Shown here one piece after another: positions 3,001-44,340 of a DNA stretch of 64,000 nt. The stretch is from a virus. The stretch lies in IMG/VR virus record IMGVR_UViG_3300006141_000001; one strand, 5' to 3'. Below the pieces are notes generated by a model. It was not told the origin of the DNA. It saw only the letters and a program-made list of their open reading frames with translations, and did no database searches. Position numbers and translations under genes: made by a program. Numbering within the stretch: the first letter of the stretch is position 1; every line of letters begins with the position of its first letter.

Positions 3001-6000
3001 GGTTGGCTCCCATAACCCAGCAATAGGGAATGCGTGGGGAAGCAATAAAAACAGCAACAAAAACGGGAATTCAAACTCAGGTTCAGATTCCTCAAAAGAG
3101 CCTTCTATTGAGATCTTTGACTTCATAGAAATACTCATCTCCCGCATTGAAGCCGCAACAGAACGCCTAAAATCCAAGGCAGAAGAGACATTCACTGCAC
3201 TAAAGACCCGCGCAAACGCCTACAACAAGGCAGTCGCGAAGGTAACGGAGGAAATCAACATCCAGAGCAGGGCATATGACGCATACATGGCCAAGGCAAA
3301 CAGCATAGGTCTGGAAGCCGCATATGCTGCACAGGTGCGTGACGGGAGCATCAACATAGATGAGGTGTCCGATGACGGACTTAAAGAACGTATCAAAAAT
3401 TACCAGGAGTGGTATGAGAAAGCCCTGGACTGCCAGGATGCAATCCGGGAATTAAAAAATACACAGCGCGAACTGTTACAGGAAAAGATTGAGGCATACA
3501 TCACCAAGTATGACCAGATCATAGCCAGGCTGGAATCCGCAAGCACGCGCATCCAGAACAATTTGGACATCAAGGAAGCATGGGGTTTGTCCGCAAGCGC
3601 GAATGATTACAAGAGCCTAAATAAGAACCTCATGAAACAGATGCGCAATATGATGCTACAGAGGAAGAAACTGATAGAACTCCGCGCGACTGTGAAGAAG
3701 GGGACAGAAGCATGGTATGAGTACAATGAGAGGATCGACTCCAATAGCGAGTCCATCCAGGAGCTTACAAAATCCATGGCCGAGAATGCCACTGCACAGG
3801 CCGAACTTGCAAAGGCAAAGGCAGACAGGAGGAATGAAAGAGAGGATACCGAAGACGAAGCCCTTGACGCAAGGCTTTCCACCTCATCATCCGCATCTGG
3901 CAAGAACAGGCTCATCAATGCAAAGGCCAAGAATGCAGACCAGAGGCAGAATAACCTGAAAGTCGCATATGAGTCCTCCAAGAAAAACCGCGTAAAATAT
4001 GGGACAGGCATACAGAAGGCAGGCCAGAAAGGCGTATCCAGGCGGAATAAGAAGCTGTTCCAGAAGGCAATTAAATGCGTGAAGGACAGGAAACTTATTG
4101 GTGTGTCTATCCTAAACAGCATAGCAGACGCAATGAAAAATGCAAAGGGCAATGAATACAATGCATTAGGCAGGCTGCTCTCCTACTGTAATAACTACAA
4201 CGCATATAAGAATGCCGAGGAAGAGAACAGGCTCGCCTATGAAATGTATGCCCTGACCGCGCAGGCCGAGAAGAAATCCATGCGCGAGGAACAGCTACAG
4301 AATAAATTAGACAGCAGGCAGAAAGTTGCTGACCGTGCCACAACTTCCATGGCAGAGACGGCATACGCAAAGAACAGGAACTCCAACATACAGGTAAGCC
4401 TTGCAGAAGGCAATGCAAAGGCATACACGGAAGCAAGGAAGCTGGCATCCTCAGACAGGAAGAAAGCCGCCAAAAAGGCATCCTTCTATACCGGGAAGCA
4501 ATATAAGAAGGCCACGGGCAAGCTGAAATCAAGGCTTAAGAAAGTGGCATCCGCAATCAAGTCTGGGAAAAAGATAAGCAGCGATGGCTTAAAGGCGGTG
4601 AAGGAATACTGCGTAAAATACTTAAGCGGCAATTTATCCTATTACTATAACTGCCGTGCCTACAATGAAGCTGTAGAGAACGAGATAAGCGCAAAGGACG
4701 CAGAAGCAATCGCGAAGGCAGACGCATATGCCGCAAAGCTACAGTCCAGGATGGAAAAGACGGAGAACTCTGTTTCCAAAAGGGACAGTGAGAATGAACT
4801 GTATGAGGCCACTGCAAAGAATGAGAAGACCGCATATGGCAAGAACAAGTATGTGAACATGCGCATCTCTAACGTCAAAAAGAACCTTGCAGACTATAAG
4901 GACACATACACCCAAAACAATTCCAGCCTGAAATCCGCAAGGAAGAAAGTGGACAGCACAAAAGGGACGGACAAGGCATCCAAGAAGACCATCAGCGAGA
5001 TTAAGAAATATACAGCAAAGGGAGCCTTCATCCCACAGAGCCTGGTTAAGAAGGCATACGGGATTTCCAACGCATTCGGCCTTGCATGTGAGAATTACAA
5101 CGAGTCCCTGGAAGCAAGGAATGCGTCCAAGGAGACATATGAACTGTACCAGCAGACGGCAAAGACCGGGATGGAGTCCATGGCCATGGAGAAGCTGGAG
5201 AACATTGGGAAGGAGTATGACAATAAGATTGCCGGGTATGAGCAGAGGGCGGCAAAGCTAGATAGCGCCATAAACCTGACCCAGGCAAAGGGATACCAGA
5301 CGGGCAAAGCATTCTACGAAAATCTCTATGCTAATGAAGAGTCCAGGAACAAGGAACTAAGGAAGAAACGTGAGGACATGGTTAAATCACTGGCAGACTC
5401 CGTTGCCACTGGCAAGATTGAGAAGTACAGCGATGCATGGTATGAGGCCGTTGCCAATATAGATGACGTGACAAATGCGATAGACGAGTCCAGCATCTCC
5501 CTGGAAGAGTATGTGAGCCAGATGCGCCAGCTGGAATGGGACAACTTCGGGTACCTACAGGGACTAATCAATGACACCACGCAGGAAATGGGCTTCCTGA
5601 TCGATGAACTTTCCAGGCAGGACTTGACGAGCGACAAGACCGGGAGCCTGACAGATGAGGGGAACGCCGTGGCAATGCTACATGCAATGAACTACAGCGT
5701 GAAGAAAGACCAGCTGGAAGCCTATGCGGAACAGGTACGGAAGATTGATAAGGAACTTGCAAAAGACCCTTATAACAAGACCTTGATAGACCAGCAGCGC
5801 GAGTACCAGCAGGCAATGCAGGACACCATAAAAGGCATAGAGGATGAGAAGTATGCAGTCATAGACCTATATAAGCAGGGATATGAGGCACTGGTTGCAA
5901 AGATACGTGAGCTGATCAGCGAGTACAGCGGCCTGCTGGATGCCGAGAAGGACGCATTTGACTACAATAACACTATCTCAGACAAGACCAAGGAGATAGC

Positions 6001-7492
6001 GAACTTACGGAAGCAGCTTGCCGCATATGCAAATGATATGTCCGAAGAGACAAGGGCAAAGGCACAGACATTGCGCGTGTCATTGGAAGAGGCCGAGAAG
6101 GACTTGCAGGAGACACAGTATGACAAATATATCTCTGATACCAAGGAAATGCTGTCCGACCTGGGCGATGACTTTGAAGAGGCAATCCAGGAGCTTATCA
6201 GCAATTTACACCTGGAATTTGATAAGCTGGTCGCGGATATCAACACAAACAGGGGCGAGTCCGTAAATACTATCCTGAATAAGATGGAAGAAATTGGATA
6301 TGCCCCAACGGAAGAACTCAAGTCGCTGCTGGAAGGCATCTCTAAAACGGAGACCCCTGGCAGCAATGGGGAAATCCCAGAAATCACATCCGCTGTCAAT
6401 GGCATGGTAGGAACCATTAAAGATTTCTGCGCAGATATGACGGGGTTTGCCGACCTGATCGCAAAGGCGGCATCCGTAATCAAGGCCGTTGCGGACGAGA
6501 TACCAGATAAGAAGCCAGACGGGGGCAATGAAAACAATGGGGGTGCTGGCAATAACGGCAATAATGGGAATGCTGGGAATAACGGCACTGATAACGGTAG
6601 CAATGCAGGGGACACAGGGAAGCCAAAGGGAGGGAAGACGGAGATGTATATTGAACCGCCAAAAACTGTAAACCCTGTCACCATCCCAGACAATGTGATG
6701 ATTGACGAGTCACAGCTTAACAAGGACACATCCCTTATTGACACGTCATACCTGGATAAGTTTAAGCCGATTACGGAAGCGCCAAAGAAAACCGATGGCA
6801 CTAAGAAAAAACCAGATGCGGCCATGAAAAAGGCCGAGCAGAAGGCATATGCCTTGGATTACATAAAGGCACATGCGTCCGCAGCGAAAAAGAAGCCGGC
6901 TTCTGACCTGAATAAGAAAATCTATGACAATTTCGGGAAGAAGGTGCTTTCCTTAAAGGAAGCGAAGGAACTTGCGGAAAACTTGGGGATAAAGTATGAC
7001 AATGCAAAATCCACAGGGAAGCTGTATAAGAAACTGAGGTCGCTGGGCGTGAAAGGGTTTAAGGTTGGATCCCCATATATCCCATATGACCAGCTTGCGT
7101 TCCTGGGCGAAGGGGGCAATGAACTTCACTTTGACAGGGACAAGGGCATACTGCGCGAAGTCGGACAAGGGGACATGGTATTCACGGCTGACATGACAAA
7201 GAACTTATGGGAGATGGCGAATGCCGACCCCTCAAAGATATTTGGCGTAAATATGACGAAGAGCGGGTCTGTACAGGCACAGCCTATGGGAGGTATGGGT
7301 GACGTGAATGTGACATTTGGCGACCTTACACTGCCAGACGTGACCAACAGCGAAGAGTTTGCGGGGAGCGTGAAGCAGGTAATGCGGAAGGCAATCTGTG
7401 ATGATTACAGGACACAGAAATGCTTTTCAGAGGCAATCTCATCCCAGATGCTTGGGAAAGGCGTTGGGATTGCTAGGCATTGGAAGAATTAG
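2..7492 (+). CDS. Tail tape measure protein (5'-partial, >2490 aa)
   Basis: Frame is open from base 2 through the ATG at 188; long helical Ala/Lys/Glu-rich protein with two TMP-type motifs (HATGT...ALINELGNE, FKVGS...AFLGEGGNE); lies directly upstream of tail-tip genes. Confidence 0.88.
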   Translation, partial: TDALLETYNSAISEANSNAQTIESLASRYEKLSKGVNNLGENVSLTADEYSEYNDIVNQIADMFPTLIQGYTNEGDAILSLKGNVEELRNAYKEAQEEAYNLLIASGKNSDGNDILKDANNVINNVKTGDWFGKGSTPGGNKETIDYIDKISNIFSKDNYKDIILGKTGLGTPLDPSDDDKTFRKWFTYLTGIPTDGSKYISDITDEQVAEILNKLKISKQTLNAEINSVVDNVETIANAYLMTNEDYEKLDDQSKNATSMIVNSLNADTVSSFGENKENVGKYVDSIVETILNNQDAKDAIIGLFTMDTTDMSISDIEQQINGYINTISGILGENPAELKVRLGFDDSDTQPLINNVREKLQDEFDDKVGELTLEDLQIAAEQIEVPEGTLLSWDELMSKIEDIKNGVSNLEIKPFTDQFKELWDSDAFEDSRKDLEKLAKEAGIAGSDIQSLAAENETLASLLDETGMSAQFAATCFNRVCDGADGFSAITDDALALDKVLHEMDGSLQQVAASKSEYDKAMEKDDYNAEFKDYQEAYASAMEMFENGDYGRHFRSTMEYLLGDDSFNMSIEEMYESMKDLKSIFGEKSTNGLEFLDRLYSKKDILDGLNSTLEKASDGSYVADFKPEEFEKIGDAMGMTAEEVSACVNALGMFGDFVMYDIDKLNDALKEMAVSAEDGGKSLLSLQGVETMLSNLGYTGYEASRILEDIKKMDGIKLLDFGSDSQKEIDGIISKLRELDMVEISGKNITIDSLISSLRDDFNMASVDIEAFVRKANNSFNFSDAEGKTLSLKEAIQKVQESDDSTSEDSMESLGKKTKETDKNVKELNNESLSKIREEFRVLGNGVGVVGDKLNGLLKTMGNMNNVKFNTETATPTDLPGSVPTMNQGTLKTKKKSPEKKGVSHATGTGGIGVPKNETALINELGNETIIDPKSGQYEIVEGGAQFRKLKKGQIILNHIQTKALKMRGKISSFGEMVSGGIGNLKGRLKGKSYAEGTVGSHNPAIGNAWGSNKNSNKNGNSNSGSDSSKEPSIEIFDFIEILISRIEAATERLKSKAEETFTALKTRANAYNKAVAKVTEEINIQSRAYDAYMAKANSIGLEAAYAAQVRDGSINIDEVSDDGLKERIKNYQEWYEKALDCQDAIRELKNTQRELLQEKIEAYITKYDQIIARLESASTRIQNNLDIKEAWGLSASANDYKSLNKNLMKQMRNMMLQRKKLIELRATVKKGTEAWYEYNERIDSNSESIQELTKSMAENATAQAELAKAKADRRNEREDTEDEALDARLSTSSSASGKNRLINAKAKNADQRQNNLKVAYESSKKNRVKYGTGIQKAGQKGVSRRNKKLFQKAIKCVKDRKLIGVSILNSIADAMKNAKGNEYNALGRLLSYCNNYNAYKNAEEENRLAYEMYALTAQAEKKSMREEQLQNKLDSRQKVADRATTSMAETAYAKNRNSNIQVSLAEGNAKAYTEARKLASSDRKKAAKKASFYTGKQYKKATGKLKSRLKKVASAIKSGKKISSDGLKAVKEYCVKYLSGNLSYYYNCRAYNEAVENEISAKDAEAIAKADAYAAKLQSRMEKTENSVSKRDSENELYEATAKNEKTAYGKNKYVNMRISNVKKNLADYKDTYTQNNSSLKSARKKVDSTKGTDKASKKTISEIKKYTAKGAFIPQSLVKKAYGISNAFGLACENYNESLEARNASKETYELYQQTAKTGMESMAMEKLENIGKEYDNKIAGYEQRAAKLDSAINLTQAKGYQTGKAFYENLYANEESRNKELRKKREDMVKSLADSVATGKIEKYSDAWYEAVANIDDVTNAIDESSISLEEYVSQMRQLEWDNFGYLQGLINDTTQEMGFLIDELSRQDLTSDKTGSLTDEGNAVAMLHAMNYSVKKDQLEAYAEQVRKIDKELAKDPYNKTLIDQQREYQQAMQDTIKGIEDEKYAVIDLYKQGYEALVAKIRELISEYSGLLDAEKDAFDYNNTISDKTKEIANLRKQLAAYANDMSEETRAKAQTLRVSLEEAEKDLQETQYDKYISDTKEMLSDLGDDFEEAIQELISNLHLEFDKLVADINTNRGESVNTILNKMEEIGYAPTEELKSLLEGISKTETPGSNGEIPEITSAVNGMVGTIKDFCADMTGFADLIAKAASVIKAVADEIPDKKPDGGNENNGGAGNNGNNGNAGNNGTDNGSNAGDTGKPKGGKTEMYIEPPKTVNPVTIPDNVMIDESQLNKDTSLIDTSYLDKFKPITEAPKKTDGTKKKPDAAMKKAEQKAYALDYIKAHASAAKKKPASDLNKKIYDNFGKKVLSLKEAKELAENLGIKYDNAKSTGKLYKKLRSLGVKGFKVGSPYIPYDQLAFLGEGGNELHFDRDKGILREVGQGDMVFTADMTKNLWEMANADPSKIFGVNMTKSGSVQAQPMGGMGDVNVTFGDLTLPDVTNSEEFAGSVKQVMRKAICDDYRTQKCFSEAISSQMLGKGVGIARHWKN

Positions 7493-7499
7493 GGGATTT

Positions 7500-7527
7500 G
7501 GGGAGTAGTGGGTTACTGCTACTCTCC
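7500..7527 (+). terminator. Stem-loop after the tape measure gene
   Basis: GGGGAGTAGTGG-GTTA-CTGCTACTCTCC, 12-bp stem with G-U pairs favouring +; weak U-tract. Confidence 0.5.
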
Positions 7528-7566
7528 TACCCTATTTAATTAATCTAACGAAATGAGGTGTTGACT

Positions 7567-7719
7567 ATGTTTAACTGTTTTTTAGTTCTTAAAAATAAAT
7601 CCGAATGGATTGAATATACAAAAAATATACTGAAAAACACTGATAATATCAATGATGATATCATTATTAAAATATTAACTTTTCCATTTAGATTTGGCTC
7701 AGCTAATGAATATTCCTAA
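7567..7719 (+). CDS. Small hypothetical protein (50 aa) or remnant
   Basis: GAGGTG RBS then ATG...TAA; very AT-rich. Confidence 0.35.
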   Translation: MFNCFLVLKNKSEWIEYTKNILKNTDNINDDIIIKILTFPFRFGSANEYS

Positions 7720-7930
7720 TTGCTTTAATTGTTTTTTAAAATCTTCAGCAAATATATTCCATGAATTTACAATAAAAATTAGGATTTTACACAACAAACC
7801 GAATAAAATAAAGTAAGGACTACTAAGTACGACCACTATTTTTAAACCAAAAACTTAGTTTTGAATATTAGTGGTATAGGCTCTTAATTCGCACAATTAT
7901 AATACAATAAAAAAGATTTGAGGTGATAAC

Positions 7931-8200
7931 TTGACTCTACTGAAAACAATTAAAAAAATTGAAATGCAGCAAAAAATAATTCAACAACTAGAAGAAGAAA
8001 ATAAATACTTAAAAGAGCAAATGGCTTTATGCGGAGGCGAGAAGGCTGTTAAAAAAAATGAATTGAAAGAAAAAAATTATTTAGAATTTTGTGAATTGAG
8101 GTATGAATTAGATAAAATAAAAGGACAATATCAAAAACTAATCTCTGATTTAAGGAAGGACAAGCGAAGATTGCGGTTCACAAAATTCATATCAATATAA
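7931..8200 (+). CDS. Hypothetical coiled-coil protein
   Basis: GAGGTG RBS, TTG start, heptad-like sequence. Confidence 0.6.
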   Translation: MTLLKTIKKIEMQQKIIQQLEEENKYLKEQMALCGGEKAVKKNELKEKNYLEFCELRYELDKIKGQYQKLISDLRKDKRRLRFTKFISI

Positions 8201-27395: not shown

Positions 27396-30300
27396 TTACA
27401 TTGATTTCCTATCTTTTATCTCCGCATTTTTGGCTTCGTTATATCTTGTTTCCCCATGTACCCTAGTAAACCCAAGGTAACCATTCATCCTGTCTATTTT
27501 TGTAATCATTTCACTTCCGCATTTTGGGCAAACATCCATTTCGACCTGCTGATATCCGCAATCTTCACAATAGCACATGGCGAGATTGACACCTTCATAG
27601 AAACCTTTCTCCATTGCCCTAAGCACGAGTGTCTTAATTGCTTCTACATTATACCCCAAATTATAACGACAATATTGTATTTTCCCCCCGTTGAAGTATG
27701 GCCAGAACCTTTCTTCTTTGTCCTGCTTCTCAATTGGCGACATATCTTCTGATACATGGCAATGGAAACTATTGCTTACATACGACCTGTCAGAAACATT
27801 CTCAATCATCCCATACATTTTCCTAAACTGTTCTATTTGCAGTCCGCAGAGCGATTCTGCTGGTGTCCCATAAATGGCATATAGGATATTATCTTCCTCT
27901 TTAATTCTGTCTACATATTTTTGGATATACTGCATCACCTCCAATGCAAATTCACCGTCTTCACGGATTGATTTTCCGTTATATAGTCTTTGCAATTCGT
28001 TCAACGCAGTAATTCCAAAGCTTATTGTCATTGGAGGCAAGATTGATTTGATTTTCTCTTCTGGCTTAAGCCTTCCTCCATACAGCCCTCCCTCACAGAA
28101 TGCAACCGGATTCACGCTTGCCCGCAATTCTCCAACATAATCGTATGTACGCTTATGCAATCCTCTGATAAGTTCAAGATAATTGTATAATACATCATAG
28201 AAATTTTTTGATTCTTGTTTTGCTTTCGCAAGAATCATCGGCAAATGCAAAGAAACAACTCCCAGGTTAAACCGCCCCTCAAATACTGGCTTGTCATTCT
28301 CATCGAGTGGGTACATACCGCCTTTTTCATACCATGGCGAAAGGAATGCTCTACAGTTGTGGCTATATATTCCACTTACTTCAAAGTGTTCGCTATCAGT
28401 AGTCACATCATAACTATACATTGTTGATTCAACTGGCAAAACCTCAATAACTTCCGCATTTGTATTATAATGGTCTGACACCATCTCTATATAACTATTT
28501 CTTTTTTTCAAACAAACAATATAATTCAATAGTTCTTCAATAGGATAAAATTCTACCCTATACCTGATTGCATTTGGATTCTTCTTAGTGTAATGATTAT
28601 GGTACAATTTTGCTGGCATAGCTAAAGCCTGTGCCAAAGCCATTTGCTGTAATGCCAATTCTTTATTGGTGGAACCAATTTGCACTACAGACCCGCCATG
28701 TGAATCTTTATTAATATATCCGTCTGCATCAATCATTCCTGCCAAAAAAGACAGTTTGCTTTCATAATCCCATGAAAAAACTTCATTTGGAATATGTCTA
28801 TTGTTTTTATTTATTCCTTCAAACTTCTTTGTCAAATAATTGATGGTTCTCTGTAAATTATTATTACAATCTGCAATTGCTGCTAAATCTTTATAAACGC
28901 CTTTTTTCCCACGTTTTTGGAGTATGGTTTTGCTATCTAAATCAAAATATTTTTTAAACACAGCATGGAAATTTTCTTCAATATCATTCTCTTCCTCAGC
29001 AGCTATTGAAGCAAAAACTTTATTGCCTTGATAGCATCCGTCACATAACAGAAATCCTAATAACCATGCCTTATCCTTATTAAAAACAATATTTTCTTGT
29101 GTATATTGAGATGAATTAATAAGAATCTGCTCTCCTTTATCAAGTTCGCCTGCTTTTTTGGTAATATTGTCTGTTGTTGTGATAGGATGATCTGATGTGC
29201 ATAATAATCTTCTCCCATTTGATAAATGCAAATCTACCCAATTATCTGACATATTCCTTATGATTTTTTTAGTATTTACAAATCCCTTTTCTGTATCATA
29301 AATTTCTACATTTTCTAAATCCATATACTGATGCGGTTGCCCACTGATTTGTTGTTTGGGTTCAAAATAATCTGACAGCCTATTCCACATTCTTTCAAAT
29401 GATTCCGCGTATAGCATACTGTTATATTTATATGTAACAATTTCTTTACCATCAACACAGCCCATGGGACTTACCACTCTTCCATATTTTTTATACATGT
29501 CACATACATACCCATTCCCTGTTAAAGACAGCCAGTCTGGATACATAGTCTTGCTGCTACAGTCAATGCCAGCATTAAACACATCAGCGTTTTGATACCT
29601 ATCGCTTCCATCACCATGCAAATTTTTGTCGTATAAGAATACGATTTTAGGGAACAAAACAGGGCGTTTAAACCCATTTTTACCCTGTCCATTCTTATGT
29701 ACATTAAGCAATGTAATGGCTGCCATTTTACCAAACTTTTCTGTCGATAGCCCTATCGTCATTGTTACAAAAGGATAATCTCCTCTGCTTGATCCGACCG
29801 TATTCAACTTGTATTCGATTCCCTGCCAGCCTTGCTCAAAGTCACGCCGCACTTTTTTATTCGCATATTTGTTGCGTTCATTTCGGAAATCATGCTCATA
29901 CTTTGAAATATCATAATCCAAATCTGTGCAAATACTATCAAATTCCTCTAGATACTTTTCATACGATTTTTCAGCATATGGTACTAACATCTTGTCAACT
30001 TCTGGTATTGTAAACCCACCGTACTGTTGTGCTGCTGTAGCTAAAATAATATCTCCCATTACACCAAAAGCGGTATTCAAAGAATTTGGCTCATTATACC
30101 AAATATTCCCCATCTCAAATCCATTTTTCATGACCTCGCCAATCCTAAAAAGGCAGCAGTTAAAAGTATCAAGCCTTGCACTCCTATCATGGATGTAAAT
30201 ATACCCATCTTTCATTGCCTGCTTTTCATCTAATGTCAAAAAGAATTTCTTATAAAGTTCTCCGTTCAATTCATTAAAAATCAGGCTTCTTTTTGTCGCA

Positions 30301-30662
30301 ACTAAGGCAGAATCTGTATTTGCGTTATTTTTATCACCAATATACCTTATTGTCTGGCTTTTTTCGTATACCTTATCCATCATATGAACAAAGTCTTTTT
30401 TATAATTGCGATATTCCTTATACATTTTTGATACAACTGGGTAATGTTCTTCCAGGACAGACTCTACAATATTATGCATATCATAAATTTCTGTGTCCTC
30501 TAAATCATTTTCAACTAACTTATCCCATACCGCATTGCAGATAATTTGGTAGTCATCATTTGTAAGCTTAACCATTGCGCGCCTTGCCGCTTTATTACAT
30601 GCATTGATTATTTTTTGCTCATCATATTGTTCTAGTACTCCATCTTTCTTTATTATTCGCAA
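27396..30662 (-). CDS. nrdD: Anaerobic (class III) ribonucleoside-triphosphate reductase with ATP-cone, intein-containing
   Basis: IIKKDG ATP cone, YIHD, NCC, TPAESL, C-terminal Zn site and RMNGYLG glycyl-radical loop. Confidence 0.96.
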   Translation of the reverse strand: MRIIKKDGVLEQYDEQKIINACNKAARRAMVKLTNDDYQIICNAVWDKLVENDLEDTEIYDMHNIVESVLEEHYPVVSKMYKEYRNYKKDFVHMMDKVYEKSQTIRYIGDKNNANTDSALVATKRSLIFNELNGELYKKFFLTLDEKQAMKDGYIYIHDRSARLDTFNCCLFRIGEVMKNGFEMGNIWYNEPNSLNTAFGVMGDIILATAAQQYGGFTIPEVDKMLVPYAEKSYEKYLEEFDSICTDLDYDISKYEHDFRNERNKYANKKVRRDFEQGWQGIEYKLNTVGSSRGDYPFVTMTIGLSTEKFGKMAAITLLNVHKNGQGKNGFKRPVLFPKIVFLYDKNLHGDGSDRYQNADVFNAGIDCSSKTMYPDWLSLTGNGYVCDMYKKYGRVVSPMGCVDGKEIVTYKYNSMLYAESFERMWNRLSDYFEPKQQISGQPHQYMDLENVEIYDTEKGFVNTKKIIRNMSDNWVDLHLSNGRRLLCTSDHPITTTDNITKKAGELDKGEQILINSSQYTQENIVFNKDKAWLLGFLLCDGCYQGNKVFASIAAEEENDIEENFHAVFKKYFDLDSKTILQKRGKKGVYKDLAAIADCNNNLQRTINYLTKKFEGINKNNRHIPNEVFSWDYESKLSFLAGMIDADGYINKDSHGGSVVQIGSTNKELALQQMALAQALAMPAKLYHNHYTKKNPNAIRYRVEFYPIEELLNYIVCLKKRNSYIEMVSDHYNTNAEVIEVLPVESTMYSYDVTTDSEHFEVSGIYSHNCRAFLSPWYEKGGMYPLDENDKPVFEGRFNLGVVSLHLPMILAKAKQESKNFYDVLYNYLELIRGLHKRTYDYVGELRASVNPVAFCEGGLYGGRLKPEEKIKSILPPMTISFGITALNELQRLYNGKSIREDGEFALEVMQYIQKYVDRIKEEDNILYAIYGTPAESLCGLQIEQFRKMYGMIENVSDRSYVSNSFHCHVSEDMSPIEKQDKEERFWPYFNGGKIQYCRYNLGYNVEAIKTLVLRAMEKGFYEGVNLAMCYCEDCGYQQVEMDVCPKCGSEMITKIDRMNGYLGFTRVHGETRYNEAKNAEIKDRKSM
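28356..29459 (-). mobile_element. Intein with LAGLIDADG homing endonuclease (368 aa)
   Basis: SPMG|CVDGKE...TSDHP...LLGFLLCDG...FLAGMIDADG...YDVT...SHN|CRAFL. Confidence 0.95.
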
Positions 30663-35599: not shown

Positions 35600-37567
35600 T
35601 TATGTTGGAATCATTTCCAAAAACTGTTCTTCTGAAATAATTGGTATATTCAGTTCATTTGCTTTTTTATTCTTGCCAGAGGTACTTTGGGTGTCATTAT
35701 TTATTAAGAATGAAGTTTTATTGCTGACGCTTCCTGATACCTTTCCACCAAAGTTTTCTATTACAGAAACCAGTTCCTCCCTATTTGTATAATGCTTTAG
35801 CTTGCCTGTAATCACAAATGTCTTTCCATTGAAAATATCATTTCCTATTTCATTATTTTGGATTTTGAAAACAAATTCTTCTGCAAGTTCGTTAAGCGTT
35901 CCTGAGAATTCCTGGAGATAGATTGATACAGATTCGCCCATAGCTTCTCCGAAATCTTCTAGCTGTTTCCAATCAAAATCTACGGAACTAACAAATGATT
36001 TAAAATCATCTCTAAAGTATTTTGAGATTGTTTTGCTTGCTGTCCTGCCAATAAGTGGAATAGACAATGAGTATATGAACCTGTCTAAAGTCGTGTTTCT
36101 TGCCATTTCTATTGCGCCTAAAATCTTCTTAACAGATTTTTCTCCAAATCCATCCAATTTCTCCATTTGTTCTTTATGTTCAGACAGTCGCATAATGTCA
36201 GCAAATGACTTAACCCATCCAAGGTTTATGAATTTCTGTAGTGTCTGTTCAGACAGCCCATCTATATTGATTGCGTTTCTGCTTACAAAGTGAGACATTT
36301 TTCCAAGCAGTTTGCCAGTACATAACCCATTGGAACATACAAGGTTTTCTGTATTGTTTGTTTTTACAATTTTGGTTTCACTTTTGCAAATAGGGCAGTG
36401 TTTAGGAACAGAAATAATATTATCATCTGTTGTTTCAATATCATCAAATTCTACTGAATTAATTTGTGGGATTATTGAATTCGCTTTATAAACATTAACA
36501 GTTTGTCCTTTGTGTGTAATCCCAAGTTCTTTCATTATTGATAGGTTATGTAATGAAGCCCTTCCCACCATAGTGCCGTCAATTTCTATTGGCTCAAATA
36601 TAGCAGTCGGTGTCAAAATGCCTGTTTTCCCCATGGTAAATTCTACATCCAGTAATTTTGTAGGATAGATGTCATCATAAAATTTGAACGCAATCTGTGA
36701 ATTTACATGATGGGATGTTATGCCTAAAGATTCCCCATATTTTATATCATCATAGGAAAATACAATTCCATCTATCGGAAATCCTAATGATTGTGCTTTA
36801 AATTGGAGGGAATCAATGGATTTTTTTATATCATCTTCTGATGCATTTTCATGTATTGTGATATGCGGGACAGTTTCAAACCCAATACTTTGAAGAAATT
36901 CTAATCTTTTCCCAAAACTGTTCGTGTCTGTACCCTCAACGCATTTCCAGGCAATGAATCTCAGACCTCTATCTTTAGTAATATTGCTATCTAATTGCCT
37001 TATTGATCCGCTTGCCAGGTTCCTTGGATTCTTGTATTTATTATCTTCTGATAAACTAAGATTTATTTTTTCGAATGTTTCATAGTCAATAATCATCTCT
37101 CCATCAACGATTACTTCTTCATTAGCGATTTTTATTGGAATATTTTCTACTGTTTTTGCATTATGTAACACATCTTCCCCAATTTCCCCGTTCCCTCTCG
37201 TTTCGGCAGAGACAAGGCTTTGCTTATACATTAGTGAGCAGGTAAGCCCATCCATCTTCAGCATAGCTATTCCTTTTCTTCCATCTAAAAATTTAACTAT
37301 ATCAGATGTAGATTTAGTTTTATCAAGTGACAACATAGGATGATTATGTCTTACTTTTTTTAATTCTGATTTTACTTCATATCCAACTGATTGCGTTGGA
37401 GAGTTTGACATCACAATATTTGTTTCTTCTTCAAGTTTCTTCAACTCGTCAAATAACTTATCATATTCATAATCAGGGATTTCTGATGTTGAATTATTAT
37501 AATACGAATCATTGTATTGATTAAGAAGTTTAACCAGTTTGTTTATTCGGTCTATCTTACTATGCAA
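35600..37567 (-). CDS. ligA: NAD-dependent DNA ligase
   Basis: YY...DYEYD, HPMLSLDK, KMDG adenylation motif, TRGNG, NPRN, Zn finger, HhH, BRCT. Confidence 0.96.
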   Translation of the reverse strand: MHSKIDRINKLVKLLNQYNDSYYNNSTSEIPDYEYDKLFDELKKLEEETNIVMSNSPTQSVGYEVKSELKKVRHNHPMLSLDKTKSTSDIVKFLDGRKGIAMLKMDGLTCSLMYKQSLVSAETRGNGEIGEDVLHNAKTVENIPIKIANEEVIVDGEMIIDYETFEKINLSLSEDNKYKNPRNLASGSIRQLDSNITKDRGLRFIAWKCVEGTDTNSFGKRLEFLQSIGFETVPHITIHENASEDDIKKSIDSLQFKAQSLGFPIDGIVFSYDDIKYGESLGITSHHVNSQIAFKFYDDIYPTKLLDVEFTMGKTGILTPTAIFEPIEIDGTMVGRASLHNLSIMKELGITHKGQTVNVYKANSIIPQINSVEFDDIETTDDNIISVPKHCPICKSETKIVKTNNTENLVCSNGLCTGKLLGKMSHFVSRNAINIDGLSEQTLQKFINLGWVKSFADIMRLSEHKEQMEKLDGFGEKSVKKILGAIEMARNTTLDRFIYSLSIPLIGRTASKTISKYFRDDFKSFVSSVDFDWKQLEDFGEAMGESVSIYLQEFSGTLNELAEEFVFKIQNNEIGNDIFNGKTFVITGKLKHYTNREELVSVIENFGGKVSGSVSNKTSFLINNDTQSTSGKNKKANELNIPIISEEQFLEMIPT

Positions 37568-38056: not shown

Positions 38057-38356
38057 TTACGTATATAACTGGAATTTTTTCCCTATTTGGTCTATGACTT
38101 CTGATTCCATTGGACGGAACCCAATAACTGTTAGAGTCCGTCCATTTTCTTCTGGCTCTAGTTCTGTAAGGCAATTGTCTTTTATTAGCCAGAAATCTTT
38201 ATTCTCCTTCAACCCCAATTTTTCTGCCATTGTTTTTGCTTTTAGTAACTGATATTTATTCTTTGCCTGGAGGACACATTTTGTAAATACTTGGGCTGAT
38301 AATTTTCCAGGTGACATATTCAAATCTTTACGGGCAATAATACATTGTTTATACAT
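38057..38356 (-). CDS. Peptidyl-tRNA hydrolase Pth2-like, internally deleted
   Basis: KQCIIARKDLNMSPGKLSAQV joined directly to FTKCVL; DNCLTE and TVIGFRP motifs present. Confidence 0.7.
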   Translation of the reverse strand: MYKQCIIARKDLNMSPGKLSAQVFTKCVLQAKNKYQLLKAKTMAEKLGLKENKDFWLIKDNCLTELEPEENGRTLTVIGFRPMESEVIDQIGKKFQLYT

Positions 38357-38372
38357 CTGCTCATCTTCTTTC

Positions 38373-38717
38373 TTATTCAATATATTTATATTTCCATTTG
38401 CAAATATCAACTTGGCTTCTACATCTGTCACAGTCCCCGTTGTCCCACACAATAAAATTATACCAAGCATGTCCCATCCATTGATGATTATCCCATTCTC
38501 TCCCATCTTTATCCTTCACAATAATCCATTTACCCTCTAACGGTTTAATAGATGCGTCAAACCATTGGTCATCATTATCTACTTCGAAACCCACAAAAAT
38601 TCCGTTTTCATATCTAATTTTGTATTCTTTATCTCCTATGAGTACAATTGCATCTTTCGCCCTAGTTACCCTTAATGGCTGCCTGCCTATCCGTTTATAT
38701 ATTTCTAAAAGTTTCAT
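38373..38717 (-). CDS. Hypothetical protein (DUF551-like C-terminus)
   Basis: WFDASIKPLEGKWIIV...DICKW. Confidence 0.65.
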   Translation of the reverse strand: MKLLEIYKRIGRQPLRVTRAKDAIVLIGDKEYKIRYENGIFVGFEVDNDDQWFDASIKPLEGKWIIVKDKDGREWDNHQWMGHAWYNFIVWDNGDCDRCRSQVDICKWKYKYIE

Positions 38718-39195: not shown

Positions 39196-39612
39196 TTATT
39201 TATAAACTAAAATTTCAATGTCTGTGTCTATAAAAACATCTTCAATGGCATTGATTACATCACTCCAAGATTTTCCGTCTGGAAATAAAGAGATTTTTGG
39301 GAAAGCAATTTTATTGATCTTATGCTCTTCGCAAGCATCTCTTAAATTATGCAAGCATTCTTTAAATACTGGAGTTATTAACAATTCTTCATCAAAAGAC
39401 TTTTTTGTACCAATTAAATATAATAACTTGTCGTCTAAAATACAGTCTCCTATGTTTTTACCATTTTCAAAGATTATGTTGATGTCTGCTACTATGAATT
39501 TCACTTTATAATAATCAGCAGGAATATCTTTATTTAAAAAGGTTCTTTCTTTGTATGTCAATTTATCCCTCCTTGAGACATTGATATGATTGTGATTCCC
39601 ATCTTGCTCCAC
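39196..39612 (-). CDS. Degenerate TARG1-like macrodomain protein
   Basis: YLIGTKK...[22 protein letters not shown]...DGKSWSDV...[12 protein letters not shown] parallels the 42437 macrodomain; N-terminal motifs and GCG loop lost. Confidence 0.7.
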
Positions 39613-41200: not shown

Positions 41201-42430
41201 TTACCTCAGTTCCACCAAGTACCGAATTGTACATTGTTCTTCTTTGTATACTATAATTTCGTCATTTCTTAACATATTACCTGCATGTGCATGTAAGCAA
41301 TTTGCCCCAGGACATGCACTTTGCAATCTTTCATAGTCAAAATTATAATATTTACTATTGAATGAATAGACATCGTATGGCTTGCCATAAGCAACTTCCA
41401 TTAAAGCCATAAAAGCTGAATTTGAATTTCCACCTGTCCAATATGCGCCTTCCAAAGAAGTATATCCTAGAGACTTTTGTGCTTTTGGTGCGTAATAAAT
41501 GCCATATCCGAACATTTTACCTGTTATGACAGCATTGGTTGGTTTTAAAACCAAACCTGTATTAATAATTGACCACCAGTTTTCATTCCTGCTTCCATGC
41601 CATAATAATTTTGTATTTTTGATACCTTCATTTACCACAAAATTTTCAAAACGTTCGCTTGTCCTCTTATTCTTGACTCTCCATGCTGAGTAAAACCTGT
41701 TAGAACAACTGCTCAACGAAGCTTTGATTTTAACAATATCGTCATTGTTACATTCAGAAAATTCCAGCCCCATTACATCCAATATTGTTGTAGGAATATG
41801 ATCTTCTTTATCTGAATCAATAGAGTCCTCCGTTTGTTTCTGGACAACCTGGCCTTTCATTACATCCAACAAATCCTGTTCGTCCGCAATTATTCGTGAG
41901 AAATCTTTATTAGATTTAGCGAGATAGTCTGATACATTCTTCATTTTACGTGGTATGACGGAAAATATATTTAACAATATTTCATTGAATTTTTCCGTGT
42001 TGCTCACGTCAACCAATTCTGCCAATAGATTCTGTGCCTCTTCTACCATTGCCTGAGTCACTTTATTTGAAGAAATTGTATAATTGTCAGAAATTGCTTT
42101 ACGTGCCATTTGTTGTAGCCGTTCTACAATATCTGCAATGGACTTATTTTCAATCTTTTTATATTTTGAGTTTTCAGTATTTCCTTTTTCAACTTGGATC
42201 AAATCTTGGGCTAATCCACTCTGATCTATATACCCTTTTTTAATTTTCTCATTATATTTCTTTTCCCATTGGCTTATGGGATACTCCCTCCTTTGGCATG
42301 AACTGCCGATCCTTCCGTATTCGGCAGTCCATTTATCTCCATGAGGTGTCATATTGTAATACTTATTATTGTTTGCTGTTGCCGTTACCATAATAAGATG
42401 TTTTGGTGTAATTTCTACGCTAATATTCAA
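41201..42430 (-). CDS. Poly(ADP-ribose) polymerase-like protein: WGR + helical regulatory + catalytic domain
   Basis: NNNKYY...YGRIG (WGR); IFSVIPR (regulatory); LLWHGSR...TGKMFGYGIYYA...KSLGY...NDEIIVY (H-Y-E triad as in PARP1). Confidence 0.93.
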   Translation of the reverse strand: MNISVEITPKHLIMVTATANNNKYYNMTPHGDKWTAEYGRIGSSCQRREYPISQWEKKYNEKIKKGYIDQSGLAQDLIQVEKGNTENSKYKKIENKSIADIVERLQQMARKAISDNYTISSNKVTQAMVEEAQNLLAELVDVSNTEKFNEILLNIFSVIPRKMKNVSDYLAKSNKDFSRIIADEQDLLDVMKGQVVQKQTEDSIDSDKEDHIPTTILDVMGLEFSECNNDDIVKIKASLSSCSNRFYSAWRVKNKRTSERFENFVVNEGIKNTKLLWHGSRNENWWSIINTGLVLKPTNAVITGKMFGYGIYYAPKAQKSLGYTSLEGAYWTGGNSNSAFMALMEVAYGKPYDVYSFNSKYYNFDYERLQSACPGANCLHAHAGNMLRNDEIIVYKEEQCTIRYLVELR

Positions 42431-42436
42431 TCCCCC

Positions 42437-42883
42437 CTATAACGTACAGATTAAAATCTCAATATCTGTATTTTCAAACACTTCTTCAATGATATCCTTC
42501 ACCTTATCCCATTCTAATTTATCGTGTCCACATCCAATCTTGGGCATTGCTACTTTTTTAATATATTTTTCCTCCATAATATCTCTCATGTATTCCAGAG
42601 CAGACTTAAGCCTTTTATATTTTGCTTTTTTCCACGGATATTTTTTTGTGATAAGATTAAATACGTTGTCCACAACAAGTGCCATCCCAAGATAAAGCCT
42701 ATCCTTTCCCTCATAATCGTCATATCTGCCATAGCTGTTATGTAATTTATTTTTCATATCATAGACTTCATCCATTTTCTTAGCCACGCCAGCACCTAAA
42801 GAAAAATCTCCTGTAATGCAGTGTGCTAAATAATAACCCTGTGGTACGTTGAATAAATCCATTTTTTGTTCTTTAATTGTCAT
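42437..42883 (-). CDS. TARG1/OARD1-like macrodomain ADP-ribosyl hydrolase
   Basis: MDLF...LAHCITGDFSLGAGVA...FNLITKK...AMPKIGCGHDKLEW. Confidence 0.92.
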   Translation of the reverse strand: MTIKEQKMDLFNVPQGYYLAHCITGDFSLGAGVAKKMDEVYDMKNKLHNSYGRYDDYEGKDRLYLGMALVVDNVFNLITKKYPWKKAKYKRLKSALEYMRDIMEEKYIKKVAMPKIGCGHDKLEWDKVKDIIEEVFENTDIEILICTL

Positions 42884-43596: not shown

Positions 43597-44340
43597 CTAT
43601 AATTGGGTTAATAATGTTTTAACTGGCTCCTTATGCATATTTGCCTTTGCCCATGCTATATAGCCTGGGTCAATCTTCGCCACATCAATCAGTTTTTCGC
43701 CGTTATATTTGCCAAAATCAAATACATAGTCTTCCAATTTTGGTTCAAATTCCTTAAGGGTTTCATATACTTTATCAGGATATGTCATATCAAGATTGTT
43801 TCTGCTGGCTAAATAATCACATAAATGGACTAAAAACTGCTCATTGTTCTCTGGTTTCGGCAAGACTACTTTACTCCTATTGGAACTACACCATTGCCCG
43901 CTATGGCTTTCACATAATCCTGCAATATATTCTTTTGTATCTTTGTCAATATCATGTTCTACGCTTGTATTCCTAACCCACTCTCCTGCAAGGATTGGAT
44001 GGTTATGCACTGTATATTGTGAACCATTTAAGCCACATTTGATTGCATCATGGAAGATTGACGTACATCGCAAACAGTCTCTTTTCTTTGCATCTGGGAT
44101 CTTTTCAGTAGCATATTCTAGCCCCAAAATATAGTTCATGATTTCTCCAAACATGAGGATATGTAATATCTGGCCATGGGAGCCGCATTGTGTCTTGTTG
44201 TGGTATTTAAGGCTTGTACTACTTGGAATTGTGAAAATATAATCTGGAATATTCTCTATCATATCTTCGCAATATCTCTTCATATCTTCTGTTTCAAACT
44301 TGCATAAGATTGGTTCGAAAATTTTAATTTTATTTATCAT
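43597..44340 (-). CDS. HD-domain phosphohydrolase with C-terminal FGKYxG domain
   Basis: PSSTSLKYH, H...FHDAIK, HP, HSGQW, VHLCDYLAS; FDFGKYNG...DPGYIAW. Confidence 0.85.
   Translation of the reverse strand: MINKIKIFEPILCKFETEDMKRYCEDMIENIPDYIFTIPSSTSLKYHNKTQCGSHGQILHILMFGEIMNYILGLEYATEKIPDAKKRDCLRCTSIFHDAIKCGLNGSQYTVHNHPILAGEWVRNTSVEHDIDKDTKEYIAGLCESHSGQWCSSNRSKVVLPKPENNEQFLVHLCDYLASRNNLDMTYPDKVYETLKEFEPKLEDYVFDFGKYNGEKLIDVAKIDPGYIAWAKANMHKEPVKTLLTQL

Follow-up and report, generated by a model that had tools for sequence, protein, structure and literature searches.

PARP2 and PARP3 modify the 5'-phosphates found at DNA nicks, TARG1 removes the PARP3 mark, and that mark has been proposed as a substrate for ligase (PMC8385414). 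Among bacterial PARPs, those that have been assayed belong to clade 2 (PMC5966428), namely CdPARP of Clostridioides difficile CD160 and HaPARP of Herpetosiphon aurantiacus. Both automodify with activated DNA in the assay and make PAR in vitro, and HaPARP requires DNA (PMC5966428, PMC8120803). Clade 1.2, delineated by Garcia-Saura et al. 2018, consists of proteins of Clostridiales that combine WGR with PARP_cat, carry a YGR motif and a modelled helical domain, and give no Pfam PARP_reg hit; its sister group is from Cytophagales (PMC5966428). On the side of the erasers, FmTARG1 of Fusobacterium mortiferum exemplifies bacterial TARG1s, which de-MARylate and de-PARylate (PMC6397177), and in DarT-DarG the mark set by an ADP-ribosyltransferase is reversed by a TARG1-like macrodomain encoded with it. 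The literature already covers bacterial PARP clade 1.2, phage PARPs and TARG1-like macrodomains of viruses. The paper on clade 1.2 (PMC5966428) mentions neither a phage origin nor an adjacent macrodomain, and an incomplete literature search yielded no paper on a PARP-TARG1 operon in phages.

Such an operon is present in the window, by which we mean the whole stretch of 64,000 nucleotides analysed here (IMG/VR record IMGVR_UViG_3300006141_000001). Both genes lie on the minus strand. The upstream one (42437..42883) encodes a TARG1/OARD1-type macrodomain of 148 aa, predicted from Pfam, PDB, PADLOC and PHROG matches to be an ADP-ribosylhydrolase and hereafter called the eraser. The downstream one (41201..42430) encodes the writer, a predicted WGR-helical-ART ADP-ribosyltransferase of the PARP family recognized through Pfam, phmmer, an AlphaFold2 model and alignments. 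Six nucleotides separate the macrodomain stop codon from the TTG at which the writer begins, in agreement with an earlier note on this DNA that had placed the two reading frames at these positions. Read from the TTG, the writer is 409 aa long; from the ATG picked by a gene caller, it would be 396 aa. The TTG directly abuts a G-rich, Shine-Dalgarno-like run and the exact start is uncertain. Translation must nevertheless begin close to the TTG, because alignments with homologues of 404-406 aa already start at residues 1-3 of the writer and the conservation of L12 exceeds 90%.

The ART catalytic domain occupies residues ~222-409 of the writer (41204..41767, minus strand) and is identified by PF00644, which scores 85.6 bits over residues 243-408 (cut-off 26.7). 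The WGR domain, with a YGR motif (Y38, G39, R40), spans residues ~10-70 (42221..42403, minus strand). Its Pfam score of 23.3 bits over residues 12-70 (cut-off 22) is marginal by sequence alone and a phmmer search of the PDB with this stretch found no WGR, so the assignment rests on Pfam together with the model. The helical, regulatory-type domain covers residues ~96-220 (41771..42145, minus strand). A Pfam scan of the open reading frame gave no match to PARP_reg, and this domain was delimited from DSSP helices (residues 96-116, 126-139, 145-158 and 174-205 of the model), from phmmer and from alignment with the HD of PARP1, PARP2 and PARP3, which superpose on model residues 89-220 (Z 26-27; the match to PARP1 runs from model 89-91 and PARP1 662 on). 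Phmmer searches of the PDB matched the helical and catalytic domains of PARP1 to residues 105-353 and PARP2 to residues 264-360 (E 3e-13), and PHROG 23333 matches the full length of the protein (E 2e-58). The model (pLDDT 93.2, pTM 0.89) aligns over residues 3-409 with the DNA-bound human PARP1 WGR-CAT fragment 548-1006 (4dqy_C; Z 27.6, rmsd 3.6, 364 residues aligned), and therefore WGR, helical and ART domains are all present. The three-domain architecture claimed by the earlier note is thus upheld by Pfam, by phmmer and by comparison of the model with PARP1.

The active-site residues picked out in that note are also in place and align as it had claimed. H278 lies in WHGS, M306 and Y312 in GKMFGYGIYYA, K319 and Y323 in KSLGY, and E391 in NDE, aligned to the NE in PARP2 YNEYIVY. 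The triad residues H278, Y312 and E391 are invariant or nearly so in two alignments, of 71 and of 160 homologues. In an alignment of 162 rows, H, Y, E, K319, Y323 and G39/R40 are kept in at least 160 (G39 and R40 in 161), and M306 in 155. This near-invariance of catalytic and YGR residues indicates purifying selection on what would be an active enzyme. PAR synthesis requires the H-Y-E triad, but the triad does not suffice for it, PARP3 being a mono-transferase (PMC8385414), and for that reason poly(ADP-ribosyl)ation by the writer does not follow from the triad alone; its product may be poly- or mono-ADP-ribose.

How does the writer compare with the described PARPs? It has in common with human PARP2, PARP3 and the PARP1 WGR-HD-ART core (4dqy, 6x0l, 7s6m) the three domains and their arrangement, the H-Y-E triad and the acceptor-site Met and Lys. 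It differs from PARP1-3 in being phage-encoded, in its low identity (~20%) and in having neither zinc fingers, BRCT nor N-terminal tail; it also has YGR in place of WGR and Asn (N389) at the position of PARP1 Y986, in addition to the lack of a PARP_reg match. The label 'PARP1-like' therefore stands for the WGR-HD-ART core and falls for the remainder: the protein begins with its WGR, and by its sequence it is a minimal core of the PARP2/3 type and not PARP1-like in the strict sense. It fits bacterial clade 1.2 as judged from the published description, and its nearest relatives in genomes come from Clostridia, followed by Cytophagales and Saprospiraceae. CdPARP and HaPARP resemble it in combining WGR, helical and ART domains within ~400-450 aa (PMC5966428; Slade 2011, cited there), but they have as eraser a DUF2263/PARG from another place in the genome, whereas that of the writer is a TARG1-type macrodomain of the same operon.

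The eraser contains a Pfam Macro domain (27 bits; cut-off 22) and is matched by PHROG 335 (E 7.5e-29) and by the DarG macrodomain model of PADLOC (55 bits). Its closest match in the PDB is human TARG1/OARD1 (4j5r), over the full length and with E 7.5e-20; DarG follows far behind at E 2e-4. Identity to human TARG1, counted from the PDB alignment, is ~35%. The two proteins (4j5r, 2eee) are equal in size, and the catalytic residues coincide: K80 corresponds to TARG1 K84 (LITKK on LITKK) and D121 to TARG1 D125 (GCGHD on GCGLD). The alignment bears out the note's assignment of a TARG1-class macrodomain retaining this Lys and Asp. The surroundings of FmTARG1 are polymorphic-toxin-like and contain no PARP, while the eraser here is coupled to one. 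In comparison with DarTG, the transferase is of the PARP type with a WGR domain, the gene order is opposite, the pair sits in a replication operon, and the eraser is a bare 148-aa domain without the C-terminal toxin-binding domain of DarG. A degenerate macrodomain paralogue of 138 aa is encoded at 39196..39612 (minus strand); it is 46% identical to the eraser over 54 aa (BLASTP) and relates to the macro family with 98.9% probability (hhalign). Its homology is limited to the C-terminal ~82 residues, and SLF stands in place of the GCG loop.

The window comes from a phage of gut-type Clostridia that is large and SPbeta-like. Its YorL-type PolIII-alpha is 44% identical to that of SPbeta, and relatives occur on 111 IMG/VR viral contigs; the phage origin proposed by the earlier note is confirmed on both counts. 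A 20-kb portion of the window, compared by megablast with GenBank phages, gave no match. The pair sits inside a long replication operon, with PolIII-alpha, RecD2, RecJ, DnaB and LigA in the vicinity. LigA (35600..37567, minus strand; Pfam DNA_ligase_aden, OB and BRCT) is NAD-dependent, lies 3.6 kb downstream of the pair in the same transcription direction, and is probably a functional neighbour of it. The replisome and ligase context noted earlier is therefore real. Consensus scans, which are weak evidence, found 28 promoter-like sites against 30.5 expected and no terminators.

Lack of conserved linkage in related phages had been named as an observation that would count against a joint module, and the linkage proved to be strongly conserved. 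When PARPs are dereplicated at 90% identity, a TARG1-like macrodomain is directly upstream in ~44 of 49 clusters. By tblastn a macrodomain is present in 75 of 80 IMG/VR PARP loci, and two more (L063 and L065) have a divergent Pfam Macro of a different type without the Lys. In L061 and L062 the ORFs upstream of the PARP are not macrodomains, and none was found at L070, where only 746 bases precede the PARP and the single ORF before it, of 100 aa, gave no Pfam match. The gap between the two genes is at most 30 bp in 81 of 91 pairs. Partner macrodomains keep the catalytic Lys almost without exception (70/72); the TARG1 Asp is kept in 43 of the 72 and replaced by Asn or Gly in ~40%. On the PARP tree the state of this Asp changes 3 times, as against ~25 in shuffles, and thus PARP and macrodomain co-diverge. 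The H-Y-E triad is intact in the close relatives without an adjacent macrodomain (L061, L062 and L090).

Replication and repair genes recur around these PARPs: PolIII-alpha lies within three genes in 49 loci, an ERCC4 nuclease in 32 and a PD-(D/E)XK nuclease in 10. LigA is found in 24 loci, directly upstream of the pair, and an ATP-dependent ligase in 8; either ligase may directly precede the pair, NAD- and ATP-dependent types alternating at one position. After dereplication a ligase adjoins the pair in only ~10 of 44 clusters and lies within ~5 kb in ~17, and the synteny of ligase and pair is partly inherited, because the carrier phages are related. The immediate neighbours of the cassette differ between phages.

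Beyond these relatives the coupling was not observed. No macrodomain was seen next to the distant chromosomal PARPs of Bacteroidota, where 3 of 73 scanned neighbour ORFs are ADP-ribosylglycohydrolases and none is a PARG; on this survey, a writer-eraser rule for the whole PARP family was rejected. Cellulophaga phi4:1 gp031, Klebsiella FBKp34 gp111 and Xanthomonas XacN1 ORF414 have the full-length architecture of the writer at 25-30% identity (PHROG 23333; PMC4245714, PMC7824862) but no adjacent macrodomain was found in these cultured phages. Genes of ~155 aa beside the phi4:1 and FBKp34 PARPs were considered as macrodomains and rejected by Pfam and hhalign. In FBKp34 a macro-like gene lies 2.4 kb upstream of the PARP, and in phi4:1 an ATP-dependent DNA ligase is encoded one gene away from the PARP. 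Lone TARG1-like macrodomains are found in many cultured phages, for example Fnu1, phage G and LP65, and none of the GenBank phage records has both a writer-type PARP and an eraser-type macrodomain.

What might a writer and an eraser do for a phage? We propose, with a probability of roughly 60%, that the pair forms a reversible ADP-ribosylation module, activated by DNA breaks, for phage DNA replication or nick sealing, a reading drawn from the domain architecture, the conserved catalytic residues, the conserved gene coupling and the replication and ligase context. The two genes, probably translationally coupled, would be expressed together with the phage replication and repair genes. Through its WGR domain the writer would attach to a DNA nick or end, and this binding would loosen the autoinhibitory helical domain. 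The H-Y-E site so freed may then use NAD+ to place ADP-ribose on the writer, on proteins close by, and/or on the 5'-phosphate of the break. The eraser, in turn, is predicted to take ADP-ribose off Glu/Asp or DNA phosphate in one piece, which would reset both the writer and the DNA end and let the phage ligase seal the latter. The phage would profit in that replication nicks and genome ends are marked or protected and that ligation is coordinated. A bolder version, which we regard as unlikely, holds that the DNA break is itself the substrate: the PARP would cap the 5'-phosphate at replication nicks or genome termini, either shielding ends from host exonucleases or pre-activating them for sealing, and the TARG1-type macrodomain would uncap or proofread them for the ligase.

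Other readings have to be weighed against the break-activated module. The cassette might instead serve host take-over or counter-defence, the PARP modifying host nucleases, RNA polymerase or defence factors in the manner of T4 Alt/Mod and the macrodomain limiting collateral modification of phage proteins or recycling the enzyme. Host macromolecules are indeed the usual targets of phage ARTs, with PART/PARP counted among the most frequent ART families of viruses (PMC9503650, PMC7824862); expression would fall with the early and middle genes, and the variable immediate surroundings have an accessory-like character. We consider this explanation possible but doubtful, since the conserved WGR and autoinhibitory helical domains imply a gating by DNA breaks that host-targeting phage ARTs do not need, and since the recurrent neighbours are ligase, nucleases and polymerase and not virion or packaging genes. 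It is also conceivable that the macrodomain is chiefly an anti-defence protein, which would clear phage DNA of DarT-type thymidine marks or break down signals derived from ADP-ribose, and that its position next to the PARP is secondary. The match to the DarG model, the structural similarity of DarG to TARG1 with a catalytic lysine common to both (PMC8385414), and the solitary TARG1-like macrodomains of cultured phages speak for such a role. The eraser is nevertheless nearer to TARG1 than to DarG in the PDB, and the short gaps and few Asp-state changes amount to a tight, co-diverging coupling that is hard to explain unless PARP and macrodomain have a common substrate; this makes a primarily anti-defence function improbable.

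The earlier note had also entertained a toxin-antitoxin-like, NAD-draining system. The PARP would then be a toxin that consumes NAD or modifies DNA once incoming DNA ends set it off, acting in abortive infection or superinfection exclusion, and the macrodomain its antidote. An antidote-first gene order and tight coupling recall type II systems, and pairs of ART and macrodomain with this function are known (DarTG, and Sir2-Macro in actinophages; PMC9503650). Most of the evidence runs the other way and renders this option very improbable. The pair is not set apart from the replication operon by any promoter or terminator signal above background, the writer has no match among the defence systems of PADLOC, and the macrodomain lacks a toxin-binding domain. 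Intact triads persist in the macrodomain-less close relatives, as they would not be expected to if the PARP were a toxin in need of its antidote, and the Bacteroidota chromosomal relatives too are without an adjacent macrodomain. By its very logic, moreover, an eraser cannot halt NAD consumption but would sustain turnover.

What are the implications of a break-activated writer-eraser module for the PARP family? Ever since bacterial and phage PARPs were catalogued it has been asked what they do, and what TARG1 and PARP-mediated DNA-end ADP-ribosylation contribute physiologically is likewise unsettled (PMC8385414). The cassette is in no cultured phage of the GenBank collection searched, and an experimental model therefore has yet to exist; the carrier phages are abundant in gut and rumen Clostridia. 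A co-diverging cassette of two proteins, repeatedly found beside a DNA ligase, is a minimal system in which questions about PARP and TARG1 can be posed. If the break itself were the substrate, PARP-type DNA-end ADP-ribosylation would gain its first physiological role, and the eukaryotic PARP2/3-TARG1-ligase axis might have originated in prokaryotic viruses. The degree of identity between the eraser and human TARG1 is also relevant to the ancestry of the eukaryotic PARP and TARG1 machinery.

On the minus strand, 6 nt apart as the earlier note had placed them, lie a macrodomain ORF of 148 aa (42883-42437) and a PARP ORF of 409 aa that opens on a TTG start (42430-41201). For the latter, Pfam finds a PARP catalytic domain at residues 243-408 (85.6 bits) and a WGR domain at residues 12-70, whose 23.3 bits are barely over the 22-bit cut-off. 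Searched against PDB sequences with phmmer, the 409-aa ORF matches PARP2 and PARP1 at E values of about 1e-13 to 1e-11; where the match is to PARP1 it covers residues 105-353, running from the helical domain into the ART domain. An AlphaFold2 model built from A1, an alignment of 71 diverse PARP representatives, has a mean pLDDT of 93.2 and a pTM of 0.89. Its top Foldseek matches are DNA-bound PARP1 WGR-CAT and PARP2/HPF1, and VIA-align superposes residues 3-409 on PARP1 548-1006 (4dqy_C) with a Z of 27.6 and an rmsd of 3.6 A over 364 aligned residues. This superposition places all three domains (WGR, helical and ART) in PARP1-like relative positions and bears out the domain architecture originally read from the sequence. 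The motifs named in that reading (HGS, GIYYA, NDE, GKMFG and KSLGY) are all real and align with the PDB sequences as claimed, within WHGS (H278), GKMFGYGIYYA (M306, Y312), KSLGY (K319, Y323) and NDE (E391). H278, G279, Y312, K319, Y323 and E391 are invariant in A1; in a wider alignment of 162 rows each of these residues, like G39 and R40 of the 'YGR' motif, occurs in at least 160. The position of PARP1 Y986 is Asn in the window PARP (N389), a residue nearly invariant family-wide; sequence cannot tell a poly- from a mono-ADP-ribose product. The protein is matched along its whole length by PHROG 23333.

The 148-aa ORF encodes a macrodomain (27 bits in Pfam) that is closest, among solved structures, to human TARG1/OARD1, with an E of 7.5e-20 over the full length and about 35% identity. 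Its LITKK aligns on the LITKK of TARG1 (K84) and its GCGHD on GCGLD (D125), so that the catalytic Lys and Asp are both retained, as had been proposed. The DarG macrodomain is a far weaker PDB match (E 2e-4); the PADLOC DarG model also matches, at 55 bits. At 42428-42440 the macrodomain stop TAG, the hexamer GGGGGA and the PARP TTG follow one another with no break, leaving hardly any spacer between the Shine-Dalgarno-like run and the start codon, an arrangement that points to coupled re-initiation or to a start slightly elsewhere. A degenerate second macrodomain paralogue of 138 aa (39196-39612, minus strand) is found 1.6 kb downstream of the PARP gene. Its family match is limited to the C-terminal ~82 residues, its GCG phosphate loop is replaced by SLF and the N-terminal ADP-ribose-binding loop is missing; it is probably non-catalytic, a reader, decoy or remnant, and no counterpart was seen within 6 kb in related loci.

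How far does the pairing extend? The PARP family is very large, with 3352 representatives at E <=1e-3 and 674 at E <=1e-30 (50%-identity clusters), and nearly all of the best 150 listed are about 400 aa long. Relatives occur on 111 IMG/VR viral contigs; in the best 80 of these (PARP identity 56-75%), a TARG1-like macrodomain gene is immediately upstream in 75, two of the remaining five have a divergent Pfam Macro of another kind at that position, and no other neighbour gene of the window is conserved across the 80 loci by BLAST. The intergenic gap is at most 30 bp in 81 of 91 cases (IMG/VR and genome collection), and the macrodomain is kept in about 44 of 49 close-clade PARP clusters at 90% identity; the linkage in related phages anticipated by the earlier note is thus conserved. 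Nearly all genome matches at 57% PARP identity or above, from Clostridia isolates and MAGs including Lacrimispora, Ruminococcus, Lachnospiraceae and Aminipila, have the macrodomain. The coupling is restricted to this clade: distant Bacteroidota PARPs (Cytophagales, Saprospiraceae) lack it, and a mixed set of genes surrounds them, only three times including an ADP-ribosylglycohydrolase. On the PARP tree of 80 pairs the state at the macrodomain Asp position changes 3 times, against about 25 in label shuffles, and therefore the two genes diverged together and were not re-paired, part of this clustering coming from relatedness alone. The partner macrodomains keep the Lys in 70 of 72 and the TARG1 Asp in only 43 of 72 (Asn in 15, Gly in 11), a loss in about 40%; the window protein has both. 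One relative, L062 (IMGVR_UViG_3300032167_003270), carries two tandem WGR-PARP genes separated by a 185-aa non-macrodomain ORF (4071-7209), with no macrodomain within 6 kb; in the upstream of the two copies, the positions of M306 and N389 are occupied by Ala and Arg.

The window is a large phage or prophage of the SPbeta type, with a PolIII-alpha that shares 44% identity with SPbeta YorL over 99% of its length; the contig measures 243 kb. Within the 2001-8000 segment (plus strand), inside an open-ended 2496-aa ORF, GC content is 43-48%, against about 31-39% in the remaining window. The genes that surround the pair on the minus strand code for PolIII-alpha, RecD2 and DnaB-like helicases, a RecJ-like exonuclease, a dUTPase and NrdD (27396-30662), the last interrupted by an intein with a LAGLIDADG homing endonuclease. 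An NAD-dependent LigA with a BRCT domain (35600-37567, minus strand) follows 3.6 kb downstream of the cassette, which bears out the proximity to replisome and ligase first noticed. Also on the minus strand are a gene with a PTH2-type peptidyl-tRNA hydrolase domain between dUTPase and LigA (38057-38506, 53.6 bits) and, between RecD2 and the cassette, one for a 247-aa protein (43597-44340; phrog_5889) that matches an HD domain weakly and carries a clear ExoX-like motif at its C-terminus (PF20600, 44.8 bits); a homologue of this protein adjoins the cassette in three related loci (L001, L040, L042). As consensus scans found neither promoter enrichment nor a terminator around the pair, it looks like part of a long replication transcription unit.

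When the three genes flanking the cassette on either side were clustered, the recurrent neighbours came from DNA metabolism: PolIII-alpha (49 loci), an ERCC4-type nuclease (32), an NAD-dependent ligase (24, all directly upstream of the macrodomain gene), a PD-(D/E)XK nuclease (10), an ATP-dependent ligase (8), and further NrdD and ThyX. Once the loci are dereplicated into 44 clusters, about 10 of them have a ligase immediately ahead of the macrodomain gene, and in about 17 one is found no more than about 5 kb away; the carrier phages are related, and part of the synteny is therefore inherited. A stronger argument for a functional link than synteny is the exchange of ligase type at this constant position, LigA in some clusters and an unrelated ATP-dependent enzyme in others. 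In the distant Cellulophaga phage phi4:1 (3992-7038), a 154-aa hypothetical protein that is no macrodomain comes after the PARP, and an ATP-dependent DNA ligase after that; in Klebsiella phage FBKp34 a 'putative phosphatase' (1025-1564) 2.4 kb upstream of the PARP matches a macrodomain HMM (E 2e-8).

What would such a pair do for a phage? The simplest interpretation is that of a break sensor of the PARP2/3 type, which would work with the phage replisome. The WGR domain would bind a nick or DNA end, the helical domain would release autoinhibition, the H-Y-E site would transfer ADP-ribose from NAD+, and the TARG1-type macrodomain would strip the mark and reset the system. This reading draws on the activation of PARP1-3 (summarised in PMC8385414), on two bacterial PARPs whose PAR synthesis is stimulated by DNA (PMC5966428, PMC8120803), on the removal of mono- and poly-ADP-ribose by TARG1 and FmTARG1 (PMC6397177), and on the modification of nick 5'-phosphates by PARP2/3, where TARG1 reverses the PARP3 mark and a use by ligase has been suggested for it (PMC8385414).

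Modification of host proteins by the PARP is possible, but it leaves the conserved DNA-sensing and autoinhibitory domains unexplained. That the macrodomain is an anti-DarT or anti-signal enzyme is plausible in itself, as phages of Fusobacterium, Bacillus (G) and Lactobacillus do carry lone TARG1-like macrodomains; the tight, co-diverging coupling to the PARP, however, finds no explanation there. Weakest is a toxin-antitoxin or NAD-drain module: the consensus scans do not set the pair apart from its operon, the macrodomain lacks a toxin-binding extension, PADLOC finds nothing for the PARP, close relatives with no adjacent macrodomain (L061, L062, L090) keep every catalytic residue, and an eraser would prolong NAD turnover, not prevent it. 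The earlier interpretation is supported in part: the pairing of a PARP of break-activated architecture with a TARG1-type macrodomain beside the replisome, with conserved linkage, holds, and the toxin-antitoxin or NAD-drain option falls to last place.

A 2014 list of phage PARPs includes those of Aeh1 and Cellulophaga phi4:1 (PMC4245714), and later work reports such proteins from jumbo phages and in a survey of NAD/ADPr across viruses (PMC7824862, PMC9503650). Garcia-Saura et al. described Clostridiales 'clade 1.2' bacterial PARPs, sister to Cytophagales, with WGR and catalytic domains, a modelled helical domain and a YGR motif (PMC5966428), a description that the window PARP and our genome scan fit. 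Phage origin and PARP-TARG1 adjacency go unmentioned in that paper and in the TARG1 paper (PMC6397177), the accessible portions of the Aravind-group surveys hold Sir2-Macro and ART toxin systems and no PARP-macrodomain operon, and none of 50,697 GenBank phage records has both genes. Both proteins thus belong to kinds already described, and their coupling in one phage cassette, with ligases in its neighbourhood, would be a variant on these. The pair is a well-conserved, predicted break-signalling module of gut Clostridia phages, interesting and not unique.
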